Positions 18,001 through 21,000 of a DNA stretch of 64,000 nt are shown piece by piece. Source of the stretch: Escherichia coli (GTDB taxonomy: Bacteria; Pseudomonadota; Gammaproteobacteria; Enterobacterales; Enterobacteriaceae); the NCBI RefSeq assembly GCF_003334385.1, contig NZ_QOWN01000008.1; one strand, written 5' to 3'. A program made the position numbers. Within the stretch, counting starts at the first letter, position 1, and each line of letters starts with the position of its first letter.

Positions 18001-21000
18001 CGCGCTGTGGATACTGTTAGTCGCGATTATCCTGATGCTGGTCTGGCTGGTTCGTTAACCCCGACGAAATGACAGTATCGTGACAATAATACCCAGCACC
18101 GCAGAGATCGCCCCGGCAAGAAATACCGAAGAGTAACCAAACGTGGTCGCCAGCATTCCCGCCAGCGGCCCGGAGACGCCGAGGGCGATATCCTGAAACG
18201 CGGCGTAACCGCCCAGTGCGGTGCCGCGAACTTGTGAGGGGACGCGTTTAACCACCTCCACGCCCAGCGCAGGAAAGATAAGCGAACATCCGGCTCCGGT
18301 TAACGCCGCGCCCGCTAATGCGACCCATGCACCTGGGGCTTGCCAGAGCAGCAACAAGCCCACCGTTTCTACAAGCAGAGAGACAATCGCCACTTTCACG
18401 CCGCCAAAACGGTCCGGCATCCAGCCAAACATGACGCGCATCACGACAAATGCGCCGCCAAACGCGGTAAGAGTAAAGCCCGCCATCGCCCATCCTTTGC
18501 TGGCAAAGTAGAGCGAAACGAAAGTCCCGATAACAGCAAAACCAACGCCTTGTAGTGCCAGACCTAACCCTGGTTTCCAGATAAGCCCGACAACGCTCCA
18601 CAGCGATGGACGTTCTCCCGCCAGGGCCGGTACTTTGCGCACTGTGCCGTTACAGGCCCACGCCAGTAAGGGTAATACCATTGTGGTGATCGCCAGTGCG
18701 GCAAAACCGTAATGGCTATGAATCAACAGGCCAAGCGGAGCACCAACAGCGAGGGCACCGTAAATCGCCATTCCATTCCATGACATCACTTTGCCAGAGT
18801 GTTTTGGCCCTACGATGCCTAACCCCCAGGTCAGAGCGCCTGTCAGTAACTGGCTTTCACCAAAGCCAAGAATCAAACGCCCGATGACCAACAGGGCAAA
18901 TTTGAACGGTGCGGAGACAGGCAAAATCGCCGCCAGCAGCAACGCGCCGCCAGCCAGACCACAAGCTAACATCCCCTGAAGCGCCGAACGTTTTGCGCCA
19001 TATTGATCGGCCAGTCGCCCGGCATAGCCACGCGTCAGCACCGTAGCCAGAAACTGAATCCCGACGGCAATCCCGACCATGGTATTGCCATAGCCCAGAT
19101 CATGATGAACAAACAGCGGGATAACCGGCAACGGCAGCCCTACGGTCATGTAGGTGAGAAAAACCGCAAAAGCGATGCGGAAGAGCGAAAAATTGGCAGA
19201 AGATCGTGTTTCGGTTTGGCTTACAGCAGTCATGCATTACTCCAGAATGCAGCGCAAGGCGAGGAGTATCCCCGTCTCATCTCTCTGGTTTCAGGGTTAC
19301 AGTGCGTTGGCAGGATTTAACGCGTACGTCTTTTCAGAAGGAAATCGACAAAGCGGGAAGTTTGCCTGGAACAGGCGGCGATTGTCAATGATGTGAAAAA
19401 GGGAACCATCGGGTTCCCTTTTGTGTTAGTGCCGGAGGCCGCATTGGCGCGTAACGTCGGATGCGACGCTGGCGCGCCTTACCCGACCTACGGCGAATTA
19501 ATCTTTCAGCTTGCGCATTACCAGCGTGGCGTTGGTGCCGCCGAAGCCGAAGCTGTTAGACATAACGGTGGTCAGTTCGCGATCGGTCGTTTCGGTCACG
19601 ATGTTCAGACCTGCAGCCTGCTCGTCCAGCTCTTCAATGTTGATGCTCGGGGCGATAAAGCCGTGTTCCAGCATCAGCAGAGAGTAGATAGCTTCCTGTA
19701 CGCCAGCAGCGCCCAGAGAGTGACCGGTCATGGCTTTGGTTGCAGAAATCGCCGGGCTCTTATCGCCGAACACTTCACGGATAGCTGCCAGCTCTTTCAC
19801 GTCGCCAACCGGAGTCGAAGTACCGTGGGAGTTCAGGTAATCGATTGGGGTATCAACGCCATGCATCGCCATCTTCATGCAGCGTACTGCGCCTTCGCCA
19901 GACGGAGCAACCATGTCTGCACCATCAGAGGTTGCGCCGTAGCCAACGATTTCAGCATAGATGTGAGCACCACGCGCCAGCGCGTGTTCCAGCTCTTCAA
20001 CCACTACCATACCGCCGCCGCCAGCGATAACGAAACCGTCACGGTGAGCGTCGTAAGTACGGGAGGCTTTTTCCGGGGTGTCGTTGTATTTAGTAGACAG
20101 CGCACCCATTGCGTCGAATTCGCAAGCCATTTCCCAGCACAGCTCTTCGCCGCCGCCAGCAAACACGATGTCCTGTTTGCCCAGTTGGATCTGCTCTACT
20201 GCGTTACCGATACAGTGTGCGGAAGTCGCACACGCGGAGCTGATGGAGTAGTTAACGCCATGAATTTTAAACGGGGTGGCGAGGCAGGCAGAAACGCCGG
20301 ATGCCATCGCTTTGGTGACCACATACGGGCCAACCGCTTTCAGGCCGCGCGGGCCGCGCATTGCGTCAGCGCCGAACACCTGGAAACGCGGGGAGCCGCC
20401 GCCGGAACCTGCAATCAGGCCAACGCGCGGGTTATTCTGGTAAGCTTCCGGAGAGAGGCCCGCATCAGCGATTGCCTGCTCCATAGAAAGGAATGCATAA
20501 ATGGATGCGTCGCTCATAAAGCGCACAACTTTGCGGTCAATGAGGCCAGTGGTATCCAGTTTTACGTTGCCCCAGACGTGGCTACGCATGCCGGAATCCT
20601 TCAGCTCCTGAGAGAAAGTGATCCCTGAACGTCCTTCACGCAGAGATGCCAGGACTTCCTGCTGGTTATTACCGATGCTGGAAACAATGCCCAGGCCAGT
20701 AATCACTGCACGTTTCATTCAATACCTCTGTAAGTCGCACATAGAGTAAGTTTCGAATGCACAATAGCGTACACTTGTACGCCGAACAAGTCCGATCAGC
20801 CATTTAATAGAGAAATTTGCGCAGCCTTACACACATCGCTAAGATCGAGCCACCGCCTGTAAGACGAGTAACTTACGTGAAACACTACTCCATACAACCT
20901 GCCAACCTCGAATTTAATGCTGAGGGTACACCTGTTTCCCGAGATTTTGACGATGTCTATTTTTCCAACGATAACGGGCTGGAAGAGACGCGTTATGTTT

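Follow-up and report, generated by a model that had tools for sequence, protein, structure and literature searches.

The convergent genes flk and yfcJ of Escherichia coli end on a shared stop tetranucleotide

The junction of flk and yfcJ in Escherichia coli is a minimal tail-to-tail overlap between two unrelated, convergently transcribed genes, both of which close on a single palindromic TTAA. We analyzed it in a 64,000-nucleotide stretch of the E. coli chromosome extending from yfcG to yfdY (hereafter the window). An account that joins this minimal overlap to the loss of an ancestral spacer, to read-through at a junction devoid of a terminator, and to standard operon junctions elsewhere in the window appears to us highly probable as the best explanation of the whole.

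The shared stop and its conservation

In the window, flk (17063-18058, + strand; ORF list, RefSeq, PMC6794478) encodes a 331-aa tail-anchored inner-membrane flagellar regulator and faces yfcJ (18055-19233, - strand; ORF list, RefSeq), which encodes a 392-aa MFS transporter. The original prediction that the two genes end on one TTAA (18055-18058, both strands) is borne out by the sequence, by the ORFs, both of which are intact, and by the RefSeq annotation. On the + strand the flk stop TAA occupies 18056-18058, and 18055-18057 is complementary to the TAA that ends yfcJ; these codons have 2 nt in common, viz., positions 2-3 of the tetramer, and the genes overlap by 4 nt with the stops included. 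In the yfcJ reading direction, position 1 serves as the wobble base of GGT (Gly), with which the yfcJ reading frame closes, and also completes the flk stop, while position 4 completes the yfcJ stop and complements the wobble base of CGT (Arg), the final sense codon of flk. Four nucleotides is the first convergent overlap possible, because the stops TAA, TAG, and TGA of one gene are incompatible with TTA, CTA, and TCA, the stops of the other as read on the + strand, at overlaps of 1, 2, or 3 nt. Previous work counted 58 convergent overlaps in E. coli and gave the allowed tetramers as CTAA, TTAA, CTAG, and TTAG (PMC2174442). The flk/yfcJ pair shows all three features that define the minimal 4-nt form, namely facing intact ORFs, one YTAR, and conserved stops, and it is the only one of the eight convergent protein-gene pairs in the window that overlaps.

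These coordinates derive from the RefSeq annotation of the near-identical strain 720632, which was transferred onto the window, with BLAST used beyond 45.4 kb; the two sequences differ at 15 positions over the first 39.3 kb of the window. Each complete transferred CDS was confirmed as an intact ORF that opens with a start codon and contains one stop only, and an indel led to a 1-nt coordinate shift for three genes. The identical 4-nt overlap is annotated in strain 720632 and in K-12 MG1655 (flk 2437950-2438945, yfcJ 2438942-2440120). A search of the whole window with Rfam at the gathering threshold matched a tRNA gene alone (45423-45494) and returned no known RNA family at the flk/yfcJ junction. 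In strain 720632 this tRNA-Arg gene (45423-45497) adjoins a 10.4-kb island, with an integrase, IS1, Mu-like baseplate genes, and an acyltransferase, which the window does not carry; an 18-nt overlap of two BLAST segments (window 45428-45445) suggests that an 18-bp direct repeat (att core) flanks the island.

The locus is present almost throughout the species: a 2.3-kb query around it has matches of at least 95% identity in 5,425 of 5,426 complete E. coli genomes. One of these genomes, strain E17 (L084, NZ_CM143886.1, 4064-4897), has a deletion that takes the flk 3' end and the whole of yfcJ; its flk is annotated as a pseudogene and is directly followed by fabB. For a wider comparison we assembled 80 species loci encoding a YfcJ relative and located both stops at each. 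Downstream of yfcJ, flk was detected in 67 of the 80; these comprise 28 loci with an overlap of exactly 4 nt (Escherichia, Salmonella, Citrobacter, and a few others), 31 with a short gap (26-123 nt, except for one species with 4 nt), and eight with about 1.5-2.3 kb between the genes. This last set (L050, L058, L062, L070, L072, L078, L082, and L047), from Kosakonia, Phytobacter, and some others, presumably carries inserted DNA. In Kluyvera and several others flk was not detected within the DNA fetched downstream of yfcJ, and in most of them a GC hairpin follows yfcJ. One record titled Chryseobacterium sp. 18061 (L038) holds an enterobacterial yfcJ/flk locus that clusters beside that of Citrobacter sp. 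18056 (L025), named under the same scheme, and is probably contaminated or mislabelled.

Across the overlapping junctions, with the window included, the tetramer is TTAA in 15, TTAG in seven, CTAA in five, and CTAG in two. All four forms are thus in use, and transitions at positions 1 and 4 change neither a stop nor a protein. The YTAR forms constitute a neutral network, because positions 1 and 4 each double as the third base of one stop and the wobble base of the partner's terminal NNY codon. The protein ends are equally constant. The Flk C-terminus falls at the identical position, right after a hydrophobic ...FWLVx, in 60 of 60 sequences (the window and 59 loci), in overlap and spacer species alike; YfcJ ends in ...FRRx, ...FRKx, or ...FRK, its terminus varying by no more than one residue, with two exceptions among the sequences compared. 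Flk belongs to the bona fide tail-anchored proteins, and its very hydrophobic segment at the C-terminus is necessary and sufficient for insertion into the membrane (PMC6794478); in the window this transmembrane anchor is encoded at 18002-18055 (+; translation, PMC6794478) by ALWILLVAIILMLVWLVR and runs through the last residue. YfcJ ends a few residues past its last hydrophobic stretch, with a basic tail.

This constancy bears on the case that the original prediction had named as its own refutation, a stop mis-assigned through a frame-shifting sequencing error. Were a sequencing or annotation error at work, flk and yfcJ would not truly abut; we found nothing in favor of this and give it virtually no weight, given the presence of the locus at ≥95% identity in all but one of the complete E. 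coli genomes and the conservation of both stops and both C-termini over about 60 species, spacer species included. Since the Flk and YfcJ ends are the same in species with the overlap and with a spacer, neither ORF has been extended, which excludes a mis-assigned stop.

Spacers in relatives and the origin of the overlap

On a neighbour-joining tree of a single protein, YfcJ, the overlap state fills one clade made up of Escherichia, Salmonella, Citrobacter, and Intestinirhabdus, and is found in all members with a detected flk; at one locus inside this clade, from Citrobacter amalonaticus, flk was undetected. A second, small overlap clade unites Pluralibacter with three other Enterobacteriaceae. 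In most of the other genera the genes are set apart by spacers of 26-123 nt that hold a GC hairpin or REP-like palindromes. Those of 31-42 nt (Buttiauxella, Klebsiella, one Leclercia, and one further strain) each fold into one perfect GC hairpin (-17 to -31 kcal/mol), and those of 72-93 nt (Enterobacter, Lelliottia, and Leclercia) hold paired REP-like palindromes reaching -59 kcal/mol. In several Enterobacter and Leclercia loci (L019, L031, L034, L035, L036, L039-L041; approximately 3680-3770) the spacer is filled with REP-like pairs (GCCGGGTGGCGGCTGCGCCTTACCCGGCCTAC...) of -49 to -59 kcal/mol; the Lelliottia spacers (L012, L014, L016) have weaker palindromes.

From the distribution of these states on the single-gene tree, the overlap most likely arose when the ancestor shared by Escherichia, Salmonella, and Citrobacter lost the spacer. 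Such a history is the simplest one, given that a spacer is present in the outlying genera and neither protein end has shifted; the second overlap clade requires two origins or later re-insertions. We propose that the ancestor would have had a short GC-hairpin spacer of the kind still present in Buttiauxella, Klebsiella, and Enterobacter, which was subsequently lost. The resulting geometry would now be locked solely by the damage to the C-terminus of Flk or YfcJ that an indel or any other substitution would cause: an indel at the junction, or a base change that leaves the set of four tetramers, costs one gene its stop and lengthens the end of its protein. Purifying selection on the two protein ends thus suffices to account for the conservation, without any regulatory benefit having to be invoked.

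Transcript ends and antisense read-through

The absence of an intergenic terminator between flk and yfcJ, which had also been predicted, follows from the geometry itself, as the common TTAA leaves no room for one. A bidirectional intrinsic terminator of the kind that separates convergent genes is absent here: the window has no spacer, and there is no conserved hairpin or terminator within 150-200 nt. In 29 overlap sequences we searched the 200 nt beyond each stop for stem-loops with a T run behind them. None of the 29 has a terminator-like match in the 200 nt that follow the flk stop; beyond the yfcJ stop, one site is matched in the window and again in a single near-identical Escherichia, and one further species has a match at an unrelated site. 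Among the overlap species no conserved hairpin lies within 150 nt past either stop, the strongest hairpins varying in both position and sequence between genera, and the strongest local hairpins are within the range seen for the background (median -13.8, 5th percentile -20.1 kcal/mol). Likewise, no structure is retained in the 200 nt past the flk stop, where the fold z-score is -1.6 and no terminator-like match occurs. An 11-bp inverted repeat within flk (17971-18000, -19.8 kcal/mol) was considered and set aside: among random 150-nt pieces of the window it ranks near the 5th percentile, the closest relative has a weaker form of it, and other Escherichia lack it.

The window match past the yfcJ stop merits separate consideration, as it could mean that the flk coding sequence harbors an intrinsic terminator at which the yfcJ mRNA ends. 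The consensus scan places a terminator-like hairpin with a short T run inside flk, 48-74 nt past the yfcJ stop (17981-18007, - strand): the hairpin spans 18007-17991 and the T run extends to 17981, with a 7-bp stem that includes five G-C pairs, followed by CCATATTTTG. Such an arrangement has parallels, in that 19 of the 58 E. coli convergent overlaps have the predicted terminator of one partner within the other gene (PMC2174442). However, only four consecutive T residues follow the stem; the motif is missing from E. albertii, E. whittamii, the cryptic clades, Salmonella, and Citrobacter; the Term-seq tables give no 3' end at the site (PMC7815308); and the region contains eight such matches against 3.2 +/- 2.0 in shuffled sequences, so that a single match is weak evidence. 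We accordingly consider this reading unlikely. As a conserved terminator, the 17981-18007 hairpin was rejected as a chance match, occurring only in the window and one near-identical Escherichia of the 29; as a weak hairpin and T run, 18007-17981 could act locally in E. coli.

With no conserved intrinsic terminator in place of the lost hairpin, polymerases from either side would have to continue in antisense into the facing gene. The curated Term-seq tables of Adams et al. (PMC7815308) assign no 3' end at the junction to flk or yfcJ, and the published 3'-end map of TERMITe has no entry there; these missing mapped ends may equally reflect low expression of the two genes. Under the read-through account that we favor, Rho would stop antisense transcription by acting on the untranslated RNA, and head-on collisions of polymerases together with 3' trimming would probably add to the formation of 3' ends. 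Complementary 3' ends, that is, a convergent excludon, would then arise as a by-product. The published listing of flk-yfcJ as a convergent excludon (PMC12288877) and the lack of assigned Term-seq ends are both consistent with such read-through. Base composition differs between the two directions. The RNA past the flk stop is C-rich, its C/G ratio being 1.47 over the initial 80 nt and reaching 1.9 beyond them, while that past the yfcJ stop is not (about 0.8-1.2 over 300 nt), which counts against Rho on that side.

The sole Rho region reported nearby is at the 5' end of yfcJ, with its peak at MG1655 2440043 (-), corresponding to about 19156 in the window (PMC7815308). Coverage across it falls from 236 to 15 reads without bicyclomycin (PMC7815308), and most transcription reaching yfcJ from the fabB side seems to stop near 19156. 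About 55-80 nt inside the yfcJ ORF (19154-19180, -) we noted a hairpin, CCGCATCGCTTTTGCGG, followed by TTTTTCTCAC. Between yfcJ and fabB, at 19302-19325 (+), a terminator-like hairpin with ACGTCTTTTC behind it could halt read-through from flk before it enters fabB in antisense.

The possibility that the overlap is itself a selected regulatory device, i.e., a functional excludon in which loss of the terminator sets flk and yfcJ expression against each other, by way of colliding polymerases and of an RNA duplex cut by RNase III, has to be weighed against this by-product view. The pair is among the 165 convergent excludons found by ExcludonFinder in at least 50% of 58 MG1655 transcriptomes in a 2025 RNA-seq survey (PMC12288877, Table 1), and the terminator-free geometry has been kept over the whole clade, both of which would fit such a device. 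Yet the method would flag any expressed pair with overlapping coding sequences, and the purifying selection on the two protein ends fully accounts for the conservation. Moreover, the partners, a flagellar checkpoint protein and an MFS transporter, have no known functional link; both genes appear weakly expressed, with 15 reads over the 800 nt that follow the yfcJ Rho site; and many genera have kept a hairpin between flk and yfcJ. Our literature search found no report of a reciprocal effect on expression or of RNase III processing of a flk/yfcJ duplex. We therefore regard a functional excludon as quite improbable, and find it more doubtful still that loss of the ancestral hairpin was itself selected in Escherichia, Salmonella, and Citrobacter to couple flk and yfcJ antagonistically, with collision, RNase III, or both setting their levels. 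The published excludome also lists three more convergent pairs from the window, namely yfcH-rpnB (1715-1761), smrB-yfcO (28271-28340), and ypdI-yfdY (63873-63948), with spacers of 47-76 nt.

Same-strand junctions and comparison with known systems

Besides the convergent pair, the window contains short overlaps between same-strand neighbors, all on the - strand; those of 1 and 4 nt are standard operon junctions permitting termination-reinitiation coupling. All the start/stop overlaps previously singled out by name are present in both annotation and sequence: the 4-nt GTGA of the hisQ stop and hisM start (4343-4346) and the 1-nt TAATG junctions of usg/truA (14749), yfcA/epmC (23864), mepA/yfcA (24673), fadI/fadJ (38272), and emrK/emrY (51075). 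The further statement that overlaps run throughout the fimbrial operon holds for half of its six junctions. Annotation and sequence concur on a 1-nt TGATG at yfcS/yfcR (30697) and 4-nt ATGA overlaps at yfcR/yfcQ (30185-30188) and yfcQ/yfcP (29700-29703); the other three do not overlap (yfcP/yfcO +1, yfcU/yfcS +19, yfcV/yfcU +81). Together, these make nine junctions at which same-strand neighbors carry a -4 or -1 motif (RTGA, TRATG). The longest same-strand overlap in the window had gone unmentioned: the annotated 3' end of folC extends 11 nt into dedD (10787-10797), whose GTG start is preceded by GAGGAG.

Tight termination-reinitiation coupling has been shown for the -4 and -1 motifs in native E. 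coli pairs (PMC10666635), and because the junction motifs are the same, the predicted translational coupling is a reasonable extension; by this analogy, coupling at the window junctions is plausible. Several downstream starts have a Shine-Dalgarno of their own, such as GGAGG (fadJ), GAGGG (hisM), and GGTGG (yfcP and yfcQ), and none is visible before emrY. Such junctions are not concentrated in the window. Twelve of its 41 same-strand pairs (29%) lie at -8 to +6 nt, compared with 707 of 2,987 (24%) genome-wide in E. coli, where -4, -1, and -8 are the commonest distances (PMC10666635); the enrichment in the window is not significant (binomial P(>=12) = 0.25).

The flk/yfcJ overlap is already known from the K-12 reference annotation and the catalogue of convergent excludons, and both 4-nt convergent overlaps and -1/-4 operon junctions are ordinary, textbook features of genomes. 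What the present analysis adds is modest: one orthologous junction at which all four permitted shared-stop tetranucleotides are in use, and a worked example of how the loss of a hairpin spacer would leave a configuration locked by selection on both protein ends. It also carries a caution for genome engineering, in that knocking out or tagging either gene at its 3' end changes the stop or the last codon of the partner.

Of the known systems, the 4-nt convergent overlaps described earlier (PMC2174442) are the closest. As in flk/yfcJ, the ORFs are on opposite strands and share one YTAR, and any terminator would have to lie inside the partner's coding sequence; there is no essential difference between the two, the lineage history being what is added here. 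The likeness to the convergent excludons (PMC12288877) is also direct, inasmuch as the pair itself belongs to the MG1655 excludome, and the flk and yfcJ transcripts must overlap because their coding sequences do. However, for the classical excludons a reciprocal effect on expression has been demonstrated, whereas flk-yfcJ is known as a transcript overlap from the published listing. The translationally coupled overlaps (PMC10666635) show the same motifs as hisQ/hisM, usg/truA, mepA/yfcA/epmC, yfcS/R/Q/P, fadI/fadJ, and emrK/emrY, with the difference that coupling was measured there while the motifs are read here, with several starts having their own Shine-Dalgarno. Finally, hairpins like those of bidirectional terminators and REP elements occupy the flk/yfcJ junction in Buttiauxella, Klebsiella, Enterobacter, Lelliottia, and Leclercia; in contrast, E. 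coli lacks such an element and has zero intergenic DNA between the two genes.
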